64,000 nucleotides of DNA, taken from the IMG/VR virus record IMGVR_UViG_2537561979_000003; one strand, 5' to 3'. Each line of letters begins with the position of its first letter. Positions within the stretch are counted from its first letter, which is position 1. This stretch comes from a virus (lineage: Duplodnaviria; Heunggongvirae; Uroviricota; Caudoviricetes). Under the pieces are notes generated by a model. The model worked only from the letters and a program-made list of their open reading frames with translations, was not told the DNA's origin and did not search any database. Position numbers and translations under genes: made by a program. Shown piece by piece: positions 3,590 to 33,550 of the stretch.

Positions 3590-5509
3590 ATGGAACAGTT
3601 CAATATCAATAAAGGGGTGACGATCAAGCCTGGGCTTGACGTGCTTCCCCCGCCAGTGACTGATGATGAATATCGCGCATTAATGGCCGGTGAGGACCGC
3701 TATCTGATGACGGAATCCAACACCCTGGAGGAAATCGAGGCTACGTTCTTCTATGACACGCCGATCCACTGGTGTGCTACGGATTTACTGGAGGCGATTA
3801 GTTCTACTCGTTTGCAGTTACACCGGACCATGCAGGCATTTGTCCGGGCATTGAACCAGAAGCTGAATGGTACCGGAATCTCTGCGGGGAGTGATAAAAC
3901 GGGGGATGTGGCCCAGAGCGGCGCGCGCGCGATCGGCGGTGCTGAAATTGGCCGGGCACGGAACGTTAACGGGCTGCCGGTCCTGCCAGCCATTATTCCG
4001 CTCAGTGATGGTCAGACTATCAGCATTCTGTTTCATAGCCCGACAGCGGAAAACCGGATCACCAATAGCGATACGCTGGTTGCTTTCCAGTTCTTACTGA
4101 ATAAAAAAGACGTTACTCACACCGTTGCTCCGATGAGTGGACGTGATATGACGCTGGCGCAGGTCACCATGAAACTTGCCAACCTTGCAGAGAAAAACTC
4201 GGCAAAATTCCAGCGTGCGCAGAAGAAGAAAAAAGCCCTGGTTGATGAAATAACCCAACTACAGGCTGACAGTGACCAGAAAGAGGATGCCATGAGCGAC
4301 CTCGCGGATCAGGTGGCAGCGGTAGAAGGGCAGAAGGTAGATCTGGAGCAGAAAATTAACGCTGTTGCATCGGAAGCGGATTCTCTTTATGAAGAGAATG
4401 AGCGTTTGCAGACGGAGATTGATCAGCTCAATCGCACAGGTGGGCGCGATACCATTGATCCAGCGGGGATGACTGGTGGGCACTCGCGCGCGCTGACGGA
4501 TCGCCTTGCCAGTATCAAAAATCGTATGCATATGAACGGGGAAGTGACGCTCAGTAATGGAGCATCAATGAAGCAATTCATTGAGGACGGCGAAGGGTAT
4601 ATCCAGTTAACCGATTCGGATGGCAGCGTGTACATGATCAAGGCTAAATCCATACAGGGTGTGGACATGGCAGATGCGATCGGCAAGCTGTTTAAAGCCT
4701 ATAAAGCGGGTAATGTATCGGAATATCTGGTCCAACCAGAAGAACATAAACCGGAAAACGTCGAACCTGAACCAGCGGAGGATACCGGTAGCTCTTCGCC
4801 TGAACCAGAAGTCTCTGTAGGTGCATATCGATATGCCTTGCAAATGCGTCCGGCGGCCCCTGGCGCAATACCTGAAGGCAACAAAGCAATTCTGCCGCGC
4901 CCTGATGAAGGTGACCCGTATTATGAATATGCACGCTACGGCATTGTTACTTACGATACCCCGCTTTCTGATCAGCAAATGAGTGAGTACGACCTGAAGT
5001 TATTGCCTCGCGAGGATTCTTTCGACTTCCTGGCGAAGACACTTACTAATGGTCCGTTTGGCAAATATGCACAAAAAGCTCTGGAGCTGGCCACCAGCTC
5101 ACCAGACGAGTTCCGCGTAATGCTGAAAACTCAGTTTCAAAAAACTTTCCCCAATATTGCGTTTCCTGGGGGCGCTGGCATCGAGAAAATGGTGCAGAGC
5201 ATGATCAATGCATTGCAGGCCGAAGTCGGTGAGATTACTCAACCAGAACCGGTCCCGGCACAGCCTGATGAAACGGTTAGCGAAGCAGATGCAGAGGCTA
5301 ATAAAGCCATTGAATATCTCAATAGCGTGATGGATATGCAAAGCACTGACATGGCGGAGATCCGTAACGCCCGGGGCAATGTCCGGGAAGCGATTGTTGC
5401 CCTTCAGGCTGCCGGACGTTTTGAGGAAAACGAAGAGCTGGTTAACGGTGCTGCTCGCCACCTGGCTGATCTGCTGGTAGCAATCCAGAAAGCGGGGGTA
5501 GCGGCATGA
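3590..5509 (+). CDS. darA: DarA-like capsid internal / antirestriction protein, 639 aa
   Basis: Size and position match P1 DarA (about 70 kDa); AGGA SD 7 nt upstream; coiled-coil-rich. Confidence 0.65.
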   Translation: MEQFNINKGVTIKPGLDVLPPPVTDDEYRALMAGEDRYLMTESNTLEEIEATFFYDTPIHWCATDLLEAISSTRLQLHRTMQAFVRALNQKLNGTGISAGSDKTGDVAQSGARAIGGAEIGRARNVNGLPVLPAIIPLSDGQTISILFHSPTAENRITNSDTLVAFQFLLNKKDVTHTVAPMSGRDMTLAQVTMKLANLAEKNSAKFQRAQKKKKALVDEITQLQADSDQKEDAMSDLADQVAAVEGQKVDLEQKINAVASEADSLYEENERLQTEIDQLNRTGGRDTIDPAGMTGGHSRALTDRLASIKNRMHMNGEVTLSNGASMKQFIEDGEGYIQLTDSDGSVYMIKAKSIQGVDMADAIGKLFKAYKAGNVSEYLVQPEEHKPENVEPEPAEDTGSSSPEPEVSVGAYRYALQMRPAAPGAIPEGNKAILPRPDEGDPYYEYARYGIVTYDTPLSDQQMSEYDLKLLPREDSFDFLAKTLTNGPFGKYAQKALELATSSPDEFRVMLKTQFQKTFPNIAFPGGAGIEKMVQSMINALQAEVGEITQPEPVPAQPDETVSEADAEANKAIEYLNSVMDMQSTDMAEIRNARGNVREAIVALQAAGRFEENEELVNGAARHLADLLVAIQKAGVAA

Positions 5510-5871
5510 CACTATCAGCTATTGAGTTAATGGACCTCAGCGATAAGTTGGATGCTCTGATGTCCAAAGCGGCTACCGCGAGTGGCATGGAGTTGCTGGA
5601 TATCAGCGATGAAATTGACCAGATCATGCAACAGATGGGGTACGGCGCGTCCGGCGGCAGTAGTGGCGAGGAAAAACAACCTTCGGTACATGATGGTGTG
5701 CCAAAACTGGTTGCTGATTTCCTGGCTGATAAATTCGTCGATCAGAGCACTGATGCATTTATCGGTACGTTACAGGACTTGAGTCAATATGTTGGCACAT
5801 ACATCGACCTGGACCAGGTTAAACAGCACACGGCGGCATGGATAGCCGCCAACATTAAAGAGGCAGCGTGA
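5506..5871 (+). CDS. ddrA: DdrA-like small protein
   Basis: 121-aa ORF overlapping the darA stop; synteny. Confidence 0.5.
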   Translation: MTLSAIELMDLSDKLDALMSKAATASGMELLDISDEIDQIMQQMGYGASGGSSGEEKQPSVHDGVPKLVADFLADKFVDQSTDAFIGTLQDLSQYVGTYIDLDQVKQHTAAWIAANIKEAA

Positions 5872-13704: not shown

Positions 13705-16435
<2,731 letters not shown>

Positions 16436-25418: not shown

Positions 25419-25504
25419 ATGGCAAAAAAAAAGGCGGCCTAATGGCCGCCAATGATGTCAAGGAGTTAAGTAATGGCAACGTCTTCGTAGTTGACAAAAA
25501 CTGC

Positions 25505-25534
25505 GGCTTAATTATAGCAATCAATTAGAGCAAT
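25505..25534 (-). promoter_or_regulatory. two overlapping C1 operator-like sites upstream of ref
   Basis: Minus strand ATTGCTCTAATTGATTG (25518-25534) overlapping ATTGCTATAATTAAGCC (25505-21), which contains a TATAAT. Confidence 0.6.
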
Positions 25535-25595
25535 GGTAGATATTTTGTTAATCGCGAATCACATTTTTTCACTTCAGTACCTGTGTGCTATACTC

Positions 25596-25668
25596 CTTCT
25601 TGATTGATTGGATGCGGAATACAAACCCGCTCTTTTGTGCAGCCTGGCTCCTTGCCAGGCTTTTTTTA
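25596..25668 (+). ncRNA. candidate small RNA (promoter-like element to intrinsic terminator)
   Basis: TATACT -10 at 25589-25594 with TTCACT 15 bp upstream; terminator agcctggc-tcctt-gccaggct plus T7 at 25641-25668; the 5' end carries TGATTGATTGG. Confidence 0.25.
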
Positions 25669-25977
25669 TTTCATCATGGAAGCTGTTAACGCTTTGGATC
25701 TTGCTGAACTGATTGAAAGGGCATTGTTTACCTTACCCAGGAGTTCGCCAAATTCCACCATCACTCTAGTAAGCCCGCGCCGCGCTTCCTCCTCCGTTGC
25801 ATTCATCACAAAATGTTCAGCACTCCGCATGCTTTTAACGGGGAACGCAACAGATATCGAGTCGATATCAGGCATCCTATCGCTCAACTTTACGGTGACA
25901 ATGACAGATGGTGACTGAATTTGAGAGCTTACAGACAGCACCACATATTTTCCGTCTATTTTGAAATCCTTCCGCAT
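25666..25977 (-). CDS. hypothetical protein between ref and cre (cra/hxr region)
   Basis: 103-aa ORF with an operator-like site upstream. Confidence 0.4.
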   Translation of the reverse strand: MRKDFKIDGKYVVLSVSSQIQSPSVIVTVKLSDRMPDIDSISVAFPVKSMRSAEHFVMNATEEEARRGLTRVMVEFGELLGKVNNALSISSARSKALTASMMK

Positions 25978-27288: not shown

Positions 27289-27320
27289 TTTTCACCTCTG
27301 ATTGATTGGTGGTGCTAAGT

Positions 27321-27379
27321 GCGCTACGCGAAATCTGTAGGACTAACACCGCCAATTTTTCACAGATTTTACGTAGCGC
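27321..27379. repeat. 18-bp near-perfect inverted repeat with ~23-bp spacer
   Basis: gcgctacgcgaaatctgt (27321-38) and acagattttacgtagcgc (27362-79). Confidence 0.6.
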
Positions 27380-28212: not shown

Positions 28213-29064
28213 ATGATAAATTATGTCTACGGCGAACAACTGTACCAGGAGTTCGCCAGCTTCAGGGATCTCTTTCTAAAAAAAGCTGTTGCACGCGCCC
28301 AACACGTTGATACAGCCAGCGACGGTCGTCCTGTACGCCCGGTTGTCGTTCTACCGTTCAAAGAAACTGACAGCATTCAGGCTGAAATTGATAAATGGAC
28401 TTTAATGGCGCGGGAACTGGAACAGTACCCAGACCTCAATATCCCAAAGACTATTTTATATCCAGTGCCTAACATCCTTCGCGGTGTGCGTAAGGTTACA
28501 ACTTATCAGACAGAAGCTGTGAACAGCGTCAACATGACCGCTGGCCGCATTATTCATCTGATTGATAAGGACATTCGCATCCAAAAAAGCGCGGGGATCA
28601 ATGAACACAGTGCGAAATACATAGAGAACCTGGAAGCAACAAAAGAGCTAATGAAGCAGTACCCGGAGGATGAAAAATTCCGTATGCGCGTACACGGCTT
28701 TAGCGAAACAATGCTGCGCGTCCACTACATTTCCAGTAGCCCTAACTACAATGATGGTAAATCAGTTAGTTACCATGTGCCACTGTGTGGCGTGTTTATC
28801 TGCGATGAAACTCTCCGTGATGGAATTATCATCAACGGTGAATTCGAAAAAGCAAAATTTAGCCTTTATGACTCCATAGAACCGATCATCTGCGACCGCT
28901 GGCCGCAAGCAAAAATATATCGCCTGGCAGATATTGAAAATGTAAAAAAACAAATTGCCATCACTCGCGAAGAGAAAAAGGTTAAGTCAGCCGCATCAGT
29001 TACGCGCAGCCGTAAAACCAAGAAGGGGCAGCCAGTAAACGACAACCCCGAAAGCGCGCAATAA
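28213..29064 (+). CDS. c1: C1 repressor of lysis, 283 aa
   Basis: 283 aa, GGAGGAGG SD; position between coi and the packaging genes; cognate operators dispersed through the window. Confidence 0.9.
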   Translation: MINYVYGEQLYQEFASFRDLFLKKAVARAQHVDTASDGRPVRPVVVLPFKETDSIQAEIDKWTLMARELEQYPDLNIPKTILYPVPNILRGVRKVTTYQTEAVNSVNMTAGRIIHLIDKDIRIQKSAGINEHSAKYIENLEATKELMKQYPEDEKFRMRVHGFSETMLRVHYISSSPNYNDGKSVSYHVPLCGVFICDETLRDGIIINGEFEKAKFSLYDSIEPIICDRWPQAKIYRLADIENVKKQIAITREEKKVKSAASVTRSRKTKKGQPVNDNPESAQ

Positions 29065-29096
29065 ATTATGCCCGGCATCAACCGGGCATTCTTCCA

Positions 29097-30209
29097 TTAT
29101 TCAGCCGCCACCGGTTTTAACAAGCCAGCATCTAGCAGTTTACGCGTCAACCACTGCTGGCCTTTACCCGTTAATTGAGGCGTCAACCGTATCTGGTAGC
29201 CATCTTCATCATCCAGCACCACTTCTTTCACCGTGAAATACCCCGCGTTGATGTACTGCTGGAACGGCACATTTTTACGTCCACCGGACGCTATCAGGAT
29301 GCCGTTCTCCCGTAACCAGACAAACAGCGCGTTTTGCTTAAGTCCAACAACCTTTGCAAAATTCCCAATCAGGATCCCTTTAGCTACTGATACCCGGTCG
29401 GCAAAATCGACTTTAGGAGCGGCGGCCACCAGCTGCTGATTTAGCTGGTGGGCTTTCTGTTCCAGAAGCTGCTTTTGTTCAGCCAGTTCGGCAGCTAGGC
29501 GCAGAGCTTCTGGAAGCGTCTGGGGGATTGCAACCGGTTGCTGTTCTTTTTGCCGGAAGTAGCTGTCTTCCAGTTTTTCAAAGAATGCCCATGCTTCATT
29601 TGTGTCCACGATCTTAGACATGCGTGCAGCGCCGCGCTCTGTCCAGAGTGTAAGGCTTCTGGCGTTCTTACCAACAGAGTAACTTCCGGTTACTCTGTTC
29701 TTAAATTCTCTTAATTTTAAACCAGTTAGAAGAAAGTAATGCTTACCTTCTTCAAAGCGGTCAAGGTTGCGAGACAAATTGTTGCGAATATTGGCTTCAT
29801 CGACCCCATACCCTCTAGCAAGAGTTTCGGTTGTCACGACACGTACTCCCTGCCATTCCAGAACGGGAATTTCATCCGGCTGATTCTGAACAACCACCAG
29901 TTCCGATTCCTGAACTGAAGGTGCATAAATTTTTTCTGATTTAACGTTAGTTGCTTTCATTCTGTGTGCCTCCTTGCGTGCTTCGGCTGCGACGGTTGCG
30001 TAATTCAGATGCCCCTGTTCGAGCAGGTATTCGCGGATATCAGACAGCAGGATACGGTGAACCGCGTTCTTGTCCTTTCTCCGGTAAAGTTGTTTGGTGA
30101 TCATGAAGTAGTTGGCAATAACGCCAGGTATATCCCTGGTACTGATACAGGCAGTGTGCTGTTCAATTGCCTCGATCATCTCTTCACGGGTAACTAACGA
30201 TGTTCTCAT
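29097..30209 (-). CDS. antirepressor-like protein (ORF6N-type N-domain plus KilA-C-type C-domain), 370 aa
   Basis: Central block VVTTETLARGYGVDEANIRNNLSRNLDRFEEGKHYFLL and C-terminal DFADRVSVAKGILIGNFAKVVGLKQNALFVWLRENGIL resemble phage Ant/KilAC antirepressors; start overlaps the stop of an upstream 73-codon ORF. Confidence 0.7.
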   Translation of the reverse strand: MRTSLVTREEMIEAIEQHTACISTRDIPGVIANYFMITKQLYRRKDKNAVHRILLSDIREYLLEQGHLNYATVAAEARKEAHRMKATNVKSEKIYAPSVQESELVVVQNQPDEIPVLEWQGVRVVTTETLARGYGVDEANIRNNLSRNLDRFEEGKHYFLLTGLKLREFKNRVTGSYSVGKNARSLTLWTERGAARMSKIVDTNEAWAFFEKLEDSYFRQKEQQPVAIPQTLPEALRLAAELAEQKQLLEQKAHQLNQQLVAAAPKVDFADRVSVAKGILIGNFAKVVGLKQNALFVWLRENGILIASGGRKNVPFQQYINAGYFTVKEVVLDDEDGYQIRLTPQLTGKGQQWLTRKLLDAGLLKPVAAE

Positions 30210-30427
30210 AGTCCCTCCTGAGCAGAAGCGTTAACAGGGAGGCACCAGTAACTGAGAGAATTGCGTGAATCAGTGGAAAAACGGGCAGAGAAAATACATG
30301 GGGCGTCAGGAAGCTGAGAACGTGCCTCATCTTCTGTCGGTGCAATAACGAAGTGATAGTGACGTTTTTGGCAGGAGTAAAAGCGCCAGATAAATTCAGG
30401 ATGAGCAGGGGTAGGGATAGTAGCCAC
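30206..30427 (-). CDS. Icd-like 73-codon ORF translationally coupled to the antirepressor (GTG start)
   Basis: GGAGG SD 8 nt upstream of GTG; stop overlaps the antirepressor ATG (cTATGAga). Confidence 0.4.
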   Translation of the reverse strand: MATIPTPAHPEFIWRFYSCQKRHYHFVIAPTEDEARSQLPDAPCIFSARFSTDSRNSLSYWCLPVNASAQEGL

Positions 30428-30429
30428 AA

Positions 30430-30766
30430 TGGCAGCCTCCTTTTGCTAATTTAAGGAGCTACCGCGTGAGGTCTCAATCTCAATGGCGGTAGCACTGACT
30501 GGGTTGAGACTACCGGCGCAAAAGGGAACCGGCCTGCCTTTCGGCAGCCCAGCCAGCACTACCATTGATCTCTGAGCTAAACGCTACGTATGGCTGTGCG
30601 ATGGCATGACACAAAAAAAGACGCTTTTGGCGTCTGTGTCGCCTTTTGCATTATCCGGGGTCTCAATCCCGGCACCCGTTTTAATGAGGTGCCTGATAAG
30701 CATAAACCGAAAATGCCTCAAGGCGCAAGAGGTCAGGTTCAATGTAACATCGGCAGTTAAAAAACA
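30430..30766 (-). promoter_or_regulatory. structured leader region with alternative-pairing elements and an internal intrinsic terminator
   Basis: Minus-strand hairpins ccggg-AUUGAGAC-cccgg and cuaccgc-...UUGAGAUUGAGAC...-gcgguag, an upstream complementary GUCUCAA segment, and terminator agacgc-caaaa-gcgtct plus T7 (plus coordinates about 30618-30645). Confidence 0.4.
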
Positions 30767-30783
30767 CAATTTATTAGAGCAAA
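30767..30783 (-). promoter_or_regulatory. C1 operator-like site at the head of the antirepressor leader
   Basis: Minus strand TTTGCTCTAATAAATTG, 15/17 to consensus. Confidence 0.55.
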
Positions 30784-30786
30784 TAT

Positions 30787-32271
30787 TCATTCATTAAGCC
30801 ATGCCAGAGCTTCATCAACCTGCGCTTCGTCTTCGACGCTAAGCACTTCATCCTGGGGAACATAATCCGCCAGCATAGCGAAACAATATGTATCCCAATG
30901 GTCTGGTGAGTGCAGGTTGAGTTTTTTCTTCATATCCTCCTTACTCATCACCTTCCATTGACCTGCGGAGTTAATCCCTACAGGGATTTTCGACGCTTCC
31001 TCAATAGTTTCATTACCCTTATCCAGTCTCATACGACCAGATTTTACGGCCTCTGCGGCTTGAACGTTGGCATAAGCACGTTTATCAAAGTACAGGCTCT
31101 TATCTTCACGGCTATGCATCTTTTTACCCCAGCGTATACGCTGTACGGTAATACCATAATACTCGTACATCAGATCCGCCGTTGCTTTACCCAGGCCATC
31201 GCCGTCTATCGCTATGGTGATATTGGGGAATCGCTCAGGATTACATTCTGCGAAAATTTTGGCGGCAAGCTGCGTTTCTGTAACGTCTGTGTATTCCAGC
31301 ATTCGATAGTTGATTACACGGCGTTTATTTCTCTGGCCGGACACCATCATGATATTGATAACGGACTTATCCCTTCCCGTGCCACCAGCAACGTCCACAC
31401 ATGCAAGCCAGCCCCATCCTTTGGCAATCTTGACTTTCCGCCGCGTTGCGCGTTCAACCTCATCACGTCCAAGAAGGAAGCCATCCTGTGATTTAGGGAA
31501 TAGGCCGCGTACCTTAATCATGTACATAGGGTTATCACGCCCACCGTACTCCGCCAGCTTCATTTTGATAAATGCTGGCGTTACCAACGGTGATTCCTCA
31601 CTGTTAAGCGTGATCGCCGTATAAACGCCATCAGGGTTACCAGGACGCTTGGCCAGTTTATGGTGTGTATCGTAGAAATAGCCGCTTGGGCGTGTAGGCT
31701 GTGACAGCAATAAGATGCGGTTATCCTGTCCGGTAAGAGCACCGGTGATGATACCGAAAGCTCTATCACTGACACCGGAGGCTTCATCGATAATATACAG
31801 AAGATGATCTGCGTGTTCACCGGCGAGAGCTTCTTCACTTCCCAGACGAAAGCCCTTCGGTACTACAGTCCATACACCTTTACCAGTAACCTCATAGAAA
31901 GCGGTTTCTGTCAGAACAAAATAATCAGCAAGCCATGGAAAACGGCTGGTGGCAGTAGCCCAGTTTATCTTGATGTACTTGAATATACCGGTCATTACCT
32001 GCTGAATTTTGTTCGCAACGATAATGGCTCGGGCACCGGGATACATGATTATGAACAACATGATCATGATAGAAGTCATGTCTGATTTCCCGGTACCATG
32101 ACCAGACGAAACAGATGTCTTGCTACCCTGTTCCTGCACAGACTCAATAATCAGATCCTGCTGCCAGGTAGGTGTTTTGCCGAACAAAACATCAGCGGCC
32201 GCAATCCAGTCATAACGATATAGCGCCACCAGCTCGCGCCAACGTGGATCCGTTACGCAACTTCTGGCCAT
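30787..32271 (-). CDS. pacB: terminase large subunit PacB, 494 aa
   Basis: Terminase ATPase/nuclease fold (Walker [11 protein letters not shown]); start overlaps the pacA stop; size matches P1 PacB. Confidence 0.85.
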
Positions 32272-33464: not shown

Positions 33465-33550
33465 TTATGCTTCCTTTCGTATAAAACTCTTTTTGACGCG
33501 AGGGTAACGAAAGTCACATGTCAAAAGGCCCGGAACGGGCAAGCAATCAA

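Follow-up and report, generated by a model that had tools for sequence, protein, structure and literature searches.

The window, by which is meant the whole stretch of 64,000 nucleotides analysed here, is part of a P1-like phage-plasmid in an orientation that is the reverse complement of the standard P1 map, and its nearest relatives are phages JL22 and RCS47 and many E. coli plasmids. The minus strand carries ref (25418 to 24858), c8 (25977 to 25666), cre (27059 to 26028) and cra (27288 to 27067), and the plus strand carries c1 (28213-29064). The name c8 has been assigned to the 103-aa ORF by the annotators of P1 and P7, tentatively. In the P1 record, the only features in the spacer between ref and c8 are on the minus strand: two predicted promoters, P1ref and P2ref, and a C1 operator, Oref, whose position in the window is 25517-25533. 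The plus strand of the locus considered here is without any annotated feature in the P1 or P7 records and, among the E. coli records listed, PGAP has placed protein-coding features alone beneath the match. Over 651 bp, P1 matches the window at 91.6% identity; for P7 the figure is 89.6%, and both reach 99% over 101 bp around the candidate small RNA (sRNA) gene. The locus was found in 695 of 5,426 complete E. coli genomes, nearly always on P1-like plasmids.

Layout of the candidate RNA gene

The original prediction placed a plus-strand unit of roughly 65 nt in this spacer, delimited by a promoter-like TTCACT-15 bp-TATACT element and an intrinsic terminator at 25641-25668. Both elements are present. 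TTCACT lies at 25568-25573 and TATACT at 25589-25594 with a 15-bp spacer between them. The promoter scan gives a better reading of this site, TTTTCA-17-TATACT, in which a TG extends the -10. The promoter would therefore consist of a -35-like box, TTTTCACT (25566-25573, plus strand, promoter scan), and an extended -10, TGcTATACT (25586-25594, plus strand), that is seen both in the promoter scan and in the conservation of the site. The terminator, recovered by the terminator scan and by folding, has a G+C-rich stem of 8 bp with a 5-nt loop (25641-25661) followed by T7 in the DNA or U7 in the RNA; it looks functional on the plus strand only, as no U-tract follows the hairpin on the minus strand. 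From the geometry of promoter and terminator and from the fold, the predicted RNA is about 60-67 nt long and extends from G25602 to the end of the U-tract (25602-25668). Its length agrees at the sequence level with that first proposed. Its start does not, since G25602, located 8 nt after the -10, is a more likely start than 25596: variation among relatives is concentrated at 25595-25601 and ends exactly at G25602, where invariance begins.

In the predicted RNA, a free 5' end (GAUUGAUUGG...) is followed by a single stem-loop, then by a linker rich in U, and last by the terminator hairpin and its U-tail. The 5' end is a putative single-stranded seed, GAUUGAUUGGAUG (25602-25614), identified by its conservation, of which the first 9-10 nt are the same in every lineage. 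Stem-loop 1 occupies 25610-25633 in the minimum-free-energy fold. RNAs of 66-72 nt from the locus fold with z = -3.1 to -3.25. A covariance model built from nine homologues scores 91 bits at the locus, which is itself a training member, so that the score is not independent. Two other readings of the locus were considered and rejected. A coding function was set aside as the short ORFs at 25585, 25604, and 25608 are without a Shine-Dalgarno sequence and are not conserved across lineages. A minus-strand ribosome-binding site (CCAATCAATCA-AG-AAGGAG) was set aside as it has no start codon after it and the stretch is variable.

The position of the unit between c8 and ref could point to a local role. 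Its terminator adjoins the stop codon of c8, which is on the other strand, and its overlap with c8 is limited to that stop codon; any read-through RNA from c8 into ref would overlap it fully. A minus-strand terminator between c8 and ref was not found by inspection of the sequence or by the terminator scan, and ref is equipped with an operator of its own and an attenuator in its leader. It is conceivable, then, that the RNA is made as a cis-acting antisense or insulator transcript whose role is confined to its own locus and whose distant seed matches are incidental. Being convergent with the cre-c8 operon, such a transcript would keep ref under the control of its C1 operator and attenuator through collision or RNase III cleavage. 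As the whole explanation this is quite improbable, and the evidence that it leaves unexplained is given below with the comparisons concerned. The RNA is nevertheless complementary over its full length to c8 read-through, which would meet no minus-strand terminator before ref, and a local insulating role could therefore coexist with a trans-acting one.

Conservation in P1-like elements and distant lineages

A comparison of 82 P1-like loci from IMG/VR, whose C8 proteins are 86-100% identical to that of the window and which comprise 73 distinct sequences, reveals that the unit from promoter to terminator is the most conserved block of the ref-c8 region. None of the nine columns of the extended -10 (25586-25594) varies among the 73 distinct sequences, and only one of the 13 columns of the seed (25602-25614) varies in the set of 82. 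Nucleotide diversity in the same 82 loci is 0.016 in the RNA body (25602-25661), 0.081 in the c8 coding sequence, and about 0.13 in the spacer upstream of the sRNA promoter, so that c8 and the upstream spacer are 5-8 times more variable than the -10 and RNA body. In the hairpins of the RNA the loops vary and the stems are constant. The -35-like box is fairly conserved in the P1-like loci and in an element of Candidatus Pantoea alvi, but not in the Salmonella or L180 lineages described below. Conservation of the locus and of its complementary sites across P1-like genomes had been put forward as a check of the original prediction, and it has been borne out: the RNA is near-invariant, and the complementary motif in the cra leader is invariant in all 82 loci. 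Classical covariation of seed and target was not found within the P1-like elements, in which both sides are invariant.

Divergent lineages were located through a search for relatives of Cre. Homologues of the sRNA have been found in three further lineages with DNA identity of about 70% or less. These are the Salmonella plasmid pCFSAN058588 (L176), with a Cre 80% and a C8 49% identical in amino acids and with homologous DNA 68-75% identical to the window; a 94-kb contig of Candidatus Pantoea alvi (L168/L179), with a Cre 65% identical; and, as the third, an IMG/VR contig (L180). No relatives of the Pantoea alvi element were found in PLSDB. In all three the homologue lies past the downstream end of the cre-c8 block, on the strand that does not carry cre, and it keeps TGnTATA(C/G)T, a gap of 6-7 nt, and then GAUUGAUUG(G); the TGnTATA(C/G)T element is thus common to all four main lineages. 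The stretch after GAUUGAUUG(G) forms a hairpin whose sequence is unrelated, and a short linker then leads to a terminator with an 8-bp stem and a U-tract. The seed GAUUGAUUG(G) is unpaired in the folds of three lineages. Across nine sequences, 100% of the cells of the terminator stem are paired and two pairs have compensatory changes; as a control, sliding the pairing partners destroyed the signal. A more distant group of the Pantoea type (L178, L259, L260, and L269) has a short form consisting of GATTGATTG and a terminator, at which a recognisable promoter was not found.

A 5' end that does not vary, a structured middle that can be replaced, and a compensated terminator together make up the pattern that a seed-pairing sRNA predicts, and this pattern fixes the functional strand. 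On this comparative evidence the locus is very probably a functional RNA gene. The unit is convergent to the cre-c8 block in every lineage, as an insulator would be; an insulating role, however, leaves unexplained why the first 9-10 nt are invariant when stem-loop 1 is freely replaced.

Complementary sites in the leaders of phage genes

The original prediction named three minus-strand regions complementary to the 5' end of the RNA. At the first, an exact 11-mer match was confirmed 2 nt 5' of the Shine-Dalgarno sequence of cra (positions -21 to -11), where CCAAUCAAUCA lies in the 5' UTR of cra-cre (27299-27309, minus strand). According to the P1 annotation, P3cre would start the cra-cre mRNA near 27359, which would place the site at about +51 to +61 of the 5' UTR. 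In the predicted fold of the cra leader this site is partly occluded. All four main lineages (P1-like, L176, L180, and L179) have the motif ahead of the first gene of the cre operon, in its leader.

The second predicted target site, UAUCCAAUCAAUCA (43485-43498, minus strand), forms 14 pairs including one G.U, as first proposed. The coordinates originally given, 43486-43496, were off by one, since the exact 11-mer CCAATCAATCA, which occurs on the minus strand at 27299-27309, recurs at 43485-43495, 1 nt 5' of AGGAG. The site is in the leader of the C1-controlled (Op88) pmgT operon, between a 5' hairpin and the AGGAG of a 28-aa ORF. The predicted fold of this leader gives the order stable hairpin, unpaired motif, Shine-Dalgarno sequence, and 28-aa ORF. 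From the P1 annotation, the Op88-controlled pmgT promoters would start near 43525-43540, so that both leader sites, that of cra and that of the 28-aa ORF, are inside transcripts that the annotation predicts. The site is near-invariant in 80 loci, and the two substitutions observed (C to U and A to G) both retain pairing as G.U. The hydrophobic ORF of 28 codons itself (MNTAFKIIMAAIYFWLFSITFGGIVAHG; 43387-43470, minus strand) is the first cistron after Op88, is conserved in the 80 loci, and has a homologue in the Salmonella plasmid. The plus strand opposite this leader (43486-43529) bears a weak likeness to the short form of the sRNA, namely terminator and seed, with a covariance-model E of 0.03. 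A second, cis-antisense copy of the sRNA at this place was considered and rejected; it is without a promoter, and the Salmonella lineage is without a terminator there.

The third predicted site, CCAAUCAAUCG / CCAATCAATCG, is within codons 7-11 of pmgS, the 420-aa gene (45380-45390, minus strand), and the complementarity proposed there holds with 10 Watson-Crick pairs and one G.U. It is in coding sequence and is the weakest of the three. Its orthologue in the Salmonella plasmid keeps AACCAATCAATC, read as AAC CAA TCA ATC (pmgS codons 8-10), with all four synonymous positions unchanged, and the codons that flank the motif differ between the window and that plasmid. The motif could be kept partly by the coding constraint for N-Q-S-I. 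With a start at 25602, the 28-aa ORF would have 13 bp of pairing, and cra and pmgS 10 bp each.

Although the flanks have diverged, each of the three sites has an orthologous copy of the motif in the Salmonella lineage. In its cre operon, AACCAATCAATCAGG lies in the leader of the first gene, 10 nt before the ATG; another copy is in the leader of the homologue of the 28-aa ORF, likewise small and hydrophobic; and a fourth precedes an unannotated hydrophobic ORF of 50 aa. In L180, the motif is present in the leader of the cre operon, and another copy adjoins the start codon of ref, just past the ref attenuator. In the Pantoea alvi element, the first gene of the cre operon has it ahead of its Shine-Dalgarno sequence (CAATCAATCAcAGGGG...ATG). 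Nucleotides 11-13 of the sRNA differ by lineage, being AUG in the P1-like elements, UUU in the Salmonella plasmid, and CUC in L180. In each case they lengthen the pairing with the flanks of the respective sites, namely UAU for the 28-aa ORF, AAA or GAA for three sites of the Salmonella plasmid, and, for L180, AG and GGG. This lineage-specific agreement between nucleotides 11-13 and the target flanks is suggestive, involving as it does few events and A-rich flanks.

The 9-mer core of the motif, CAATCAATC, occurs in 7 copies in the window (1.03 expected) and in 5 copies in the 41-kb Salmonella locus (0.55 expected), and none of 100 shuffles reached these counts in either case. All copies in the Salmonella locus other than that of the sRNA gene are on the sense strand of genes, and zero copies were found in another 46 kb of P1, a stretch that overlaps the part of the genome outside the window. 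The copies at 33544 (+) and 54335 (+) of the window are antisense to lpa and glt and are therefore probably due to chance, and the copy at 13716 is at the 3' end of a gene; with copies so placed, not all copies of the motif are targets. The triple occurrence of the 11-mer was discarded as evidence, since 83 canonical 11-mers occur at least three times in the window. The 11-mers that recur in the window arise from C1 operators, Chi-like words, and chance. When random 13-mers were drawn from the window, translation-initiation zones offered two or more complementary sites, each of 10 nt or longer, to only 0.34% of them; these zones were loosely defined in this and in the duplex test and number 380 candidates in the window. 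Among these 380 initiation regions, the unstructured 13-nt 5' end ranks the 28-aa ORF first at -18.1 kcal/mol, cra second at -15.0, and a third region at -12.9. In an unrestricted duplex scan of the whole window, the site at the 28-aa ORF is the best non-self duplex (-22.4 kcal/mol) and alone stands out, and cra (-18 kcal/mol) is within the background. Prediction of pairing, one of the checks proposed at the outset, thus upheld the 28-aa ORF site in both scans and the cra site among initiation regions, but not the cra site in the whole-window scan. A purely local transcript would leave unexplained both the 7- to 9-fold excess of the complementary 9-mer and its presence at orthologous ribosome-binding regions in lineages of about 70% identity.

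The strength of the duplex at the 28-aa ORF leads to another explanation, in which the RNA is mainly a type I antitoxin that silences small hydrophobic and potentially membrane-toxic peptides, i.e., the 28-aa ORF here and ORFs of 46 and 50 aa in the Salmonella lineage, and the cre-operon and pmgS sites are secondary. The strongest duplex in the window is in the leader of just such an ORF, and small hydrophobic ORFs, one of which is unannotated, follow two of the four sites of the Salmonella plasmid. The prophage-encoded RalA is reported to have 16 nt of complementarity to RalR (PMC4041452), which is close to the 13-14 nt found here. The peptides, however, match no toxin family, and the 28-aa ORF has no match in Pfam or NCBIfam. 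In IstR-1/TisB, OhsC/ShoB, OrzO/ZorO, and RalA/RalR, the toxin and antitoxin genes are neighbours. The candidate is like IstR-1, OhsC, OrzO, and RalA in being a short sRNA with limited complementarity to the initiation region of an mRNA for a tiny hydrophobic peptide. Unlike in these systems, the 28-aa ORF is 18 kb from the sRNA (25602 vs 43470) rather than adjacent to it, it heads a C1-repressed operon instead of forming a stand-alone module, and conserved non-toxin genes are among the predicted targets, the leader of the cre operon being the sole target kept in all four main lineages. A role chiefly as an antitoxin is accordingly held to be unlikely.

The copies of the motif might also be read with no functional RNA, with TGATTGATTGG/CCAATCAATCA as a protein site (DNA or RNA) or a translational enhancer shared by several leaders, and with the promoter and terminator elements at 25566-25668 being fortuitous or forming a conserved boundary between mosaic modules. 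Three minus-strand copies, that of the sRNA gene included, are followed by the Shine-Dalgarno-like runs GAGGTG, AGGAG, and AAGGAG, and with purine runs after all three, the copies could be homologous pieces of leaders; the block also lies between two variable modules, ref and c8. At the sRNA locus, however, the AAGGAG leads to no start codon, and 25595-25601 is the very part that varies. The extended -10, its spacing, and the orientation of the U-tract are kept in four lineages and the terminator has compensatory changes, and the copy in the sRNA gene is always opposite in orientation to the copies in the mRNAs, as pairing predicts. This explanation is considered very unlikely. The preferred reading is that of a trans-acting, seed-pairing sRNA of P1-family phage-plasmids that represses translation, to which a probability of roughly 0.6 is given. 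Proposed in outline from the start as a trans-acting antisense regulator, it is favored by the conservation of the locus, its homologues, and the orthologous sites.

Known small RNAs and the proposed mechanism

At the sRNA locus no Rfam 15 family reaches its gathering score, the best being SorX with 22.6 bits against a threshold of 46.6. The C4 model (RF01695) has no match at 25450-25750, even at E up to 10, and matches 30482-30569 instead. The TruSeq RNA v2 kit is not strand-specific. One published RNA-seq study of P1 used a TruSeq RNA v2 library and quantified annotated genes alone. In the literature covered, which was that apart from Windle et al. (1988) and Lobocka et al. (2004), no published account of an RNA at the ref-c8 locus was found.

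The candidate RNA resembles sRNAs of the RybB and OmrA/OmrB type in its length (about 65-80 nt) and in having a sigma-70 promoter of its own. As in those sRNAs, the very 5' end is a conserved seed that stays single-stranded, an internal stem-loop and a U-rich linker follow, and the Rho-independent terminator has a long U-tail; pairing of 10-13 bp is likewise predicted at or just 5' of the Shine-Dalgarno sequences of several mRNAs. These Hfq-dependent enterobacterial sRNAs belong to the core genome and use a 5'-terminal seed against several targets. The present RNA differs from them in being encoded by a phage-plasmid, with the phage's own genes as its predicted targets. Within the same phage family, the C4 antisense RNA of P1 and P7 blocks translation of icd/ant by pairing at the ribosome-binding region, and therefore P1 already uses RNA-level control of immunity. 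C4 is cut from the operon transcript that it controls and pairs with that single target operon via two loops (a' and b'). The present RNA is likewise a candidate RNA repressor. It differs from C4 in having a promoter and a terminator of its own, in the linear form of its 5' seed, and in the number of dispersed targets predicted for it, which are several. Among prophage sRNAs of the Enterobacteriaceae, DicF (Qin) and IsrK (Gifsy-1) act mainly on host or island genes. The present RNA is like them a small RNA of a temperate phage with predicted regulation by base pairing, and it is unlike them in its unrelated sequence and in having phage genes as predicted targets. It is probably a previously overlooked RNA of a known type, the prophage- or plasmid-borne seed-pairing sRNA.

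Transcription of the locus, the repressive direction of the effect, and the physiological role are read here from sequence, and the mechanism is proposed on that basis. Host sigma-70 RNA polymerase would start at the extended -10 promoter, at about G25602, and would stop at the intrinsic terminator (25641-25668) to yield an RNA of about 65 nt. The promoter may be constitutive or weakly regulated, because about 35 bp separate the -35 box from Oref, which is upstream of it, and the Salmonella lineage has no such operator near the promoter. Both the U-rich linker and the U7 tail probably fit a presumed dependence on Hfq. The seed would pair with CCAAUCAAUC motifs just 5' of the Shine-Dalgarno sequences in the leaders of cra-cre and of the 28-aa ORF and pmgT, with a third pairing site at pmgS codons 8-10. 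Pairing would block binding of the 30S ribosomal subunit and probably speed mRNA decay, and the Cre operon and leaky lytic operons under C1 control would in consequence be expressed at a lower level.

Wider roles may be considered more tentatively. It is unlikely, if still worth stating, that the RNA is a second RNA-level regulator of immunity and maintenance besides C4, one that couples the Cre operon, small membrane peptides, and C1-controlled morphogenetic operons. The sRNA might be the real determinant of the genetically defined 'c8' function in the establishment of lysogeny, and host mRNAs in E. coli, Salmonella, and Pantoea could also come within range of a seed that is perfectly conserved.

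P1, from which Cre-lox was taken, is one of the founding models of phage genetics, and P1-like phage-plasmids often carry resistance genes. The sRNA merits an entry in genome annotation and in Rfam. If real, it offers a compact set of predictions, with one seed, three or four sites, and natural variants. Overall, it would represent an overlooked post-transcriptional layer on the cre operon and on C1-controlled operons, and would bear on the resolution of plasmid dimers, on leak-proof lysogeny, and on the timing of the early lytic phase in P1-like elements.

The strand opposite target site 2

Target site 2 (43485–43498, minus strand) is one of the predicted pairing sites of the proposed seed-pairing small RNA (sRNA) encoded between ref and c8/cre. 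Across from it, at 43486–43529, the plus strand reads GATTGATTGGATAC, followed by a hairpin of 7–10 bp and then TTTTTATTTT. This stretch is similar to the short form of the sRNA found in Pantoea-type elements (covariance-model E = 0.03), and P7 gives the same covariance-model match. A search for a promoter serving 43486–43529 (plus strand) found none, and at the equivalent place in the Salmonella lineage a terminator is absent. The stretch could be a relic of the origin of the sRNA or a cis-antisense RNA, or the resemblance could be a coincidence. On the minus strand of the same region lies a small ORF after Op88 (43384–43518) that is omitted from the annotations of P1 and P7. In the annotation of phage SJ46 it is a 44-aa "membrane protein" with a start within the leader hairpin; counted from the start codon that a proper Shine-Dalgarno sequence precedes, it is 28 aa in length.

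Copies of the motif in other elements

The motif complementary to the sRNA seed also occurs beside other genes. In the Salmonella plasmid NZ_CP077703 (locus L176), an unannotated ORF of 50 aa (5031–5206 of the locus, plus strand) has in front of it a hairpin, then the CCAATCAATC motif, then AGGA as its Shine-Dalgarno sequence. The C-terminal half of its product is hydrophobic (MKDFVIQRHRMARISHDKPTLRQVVTFCAQAFCVSFTLIYILSLIYQHAR), and the ORF has no homologue in the window. The plasmid of Pantoea sp. CCBC3-3-1, a distant P1-like element with the short form of the sRNA, contains three copies of the motif versus 0.26 expected. Here CAATCAATCAATC (5746–5758 of locus L178) is located on the sense strand of the ParM/StbA partition gene, 38–50 nt upstream of it.

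The cra and ref leaders

Upstream of the motif in the cra leader, a long inverted repeat (27321–27379, minus strand) with the arms GCGCTACGTAAAATCTG ... CAGATTTCGCGTAGCGC covers the predicted P3cre start. Among 82 loci the repeat has conserved arms around a variable centre, and one arm, CGTAGCGC, is also kept in the Salmonella lineage and in that of an IMG/VR contig (L180). The ref leader contains a G+C hairpin with 7 perfect base pairs and then T9 (25433–25450, minus strand), ending a few bases 5' of the ref ATG. This arrangement looks like an attenuator, and a paper cited in PMC4713147, Windle et al. (1988), has a title that agrees with this reading. In L180, the sRNA-complementary motif is located between this putative attenuator and the ref start codon.

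A module between c1 and pacB

A 1.7-kb module that is absent from P7 lies between c1 and pacB (29064–30788). Within it are Rfam matches on the minus strand to isrK (30614–30692) and to the C4 antisense RNA (30482–30569). Next on that strand come an ORF of 73 aa and an ORF6N + KilAC antirepressor of 370 aa. The module resembles an immI-like c4-icd-ant cassette that has been placed next to the gene for the C1 repressor.
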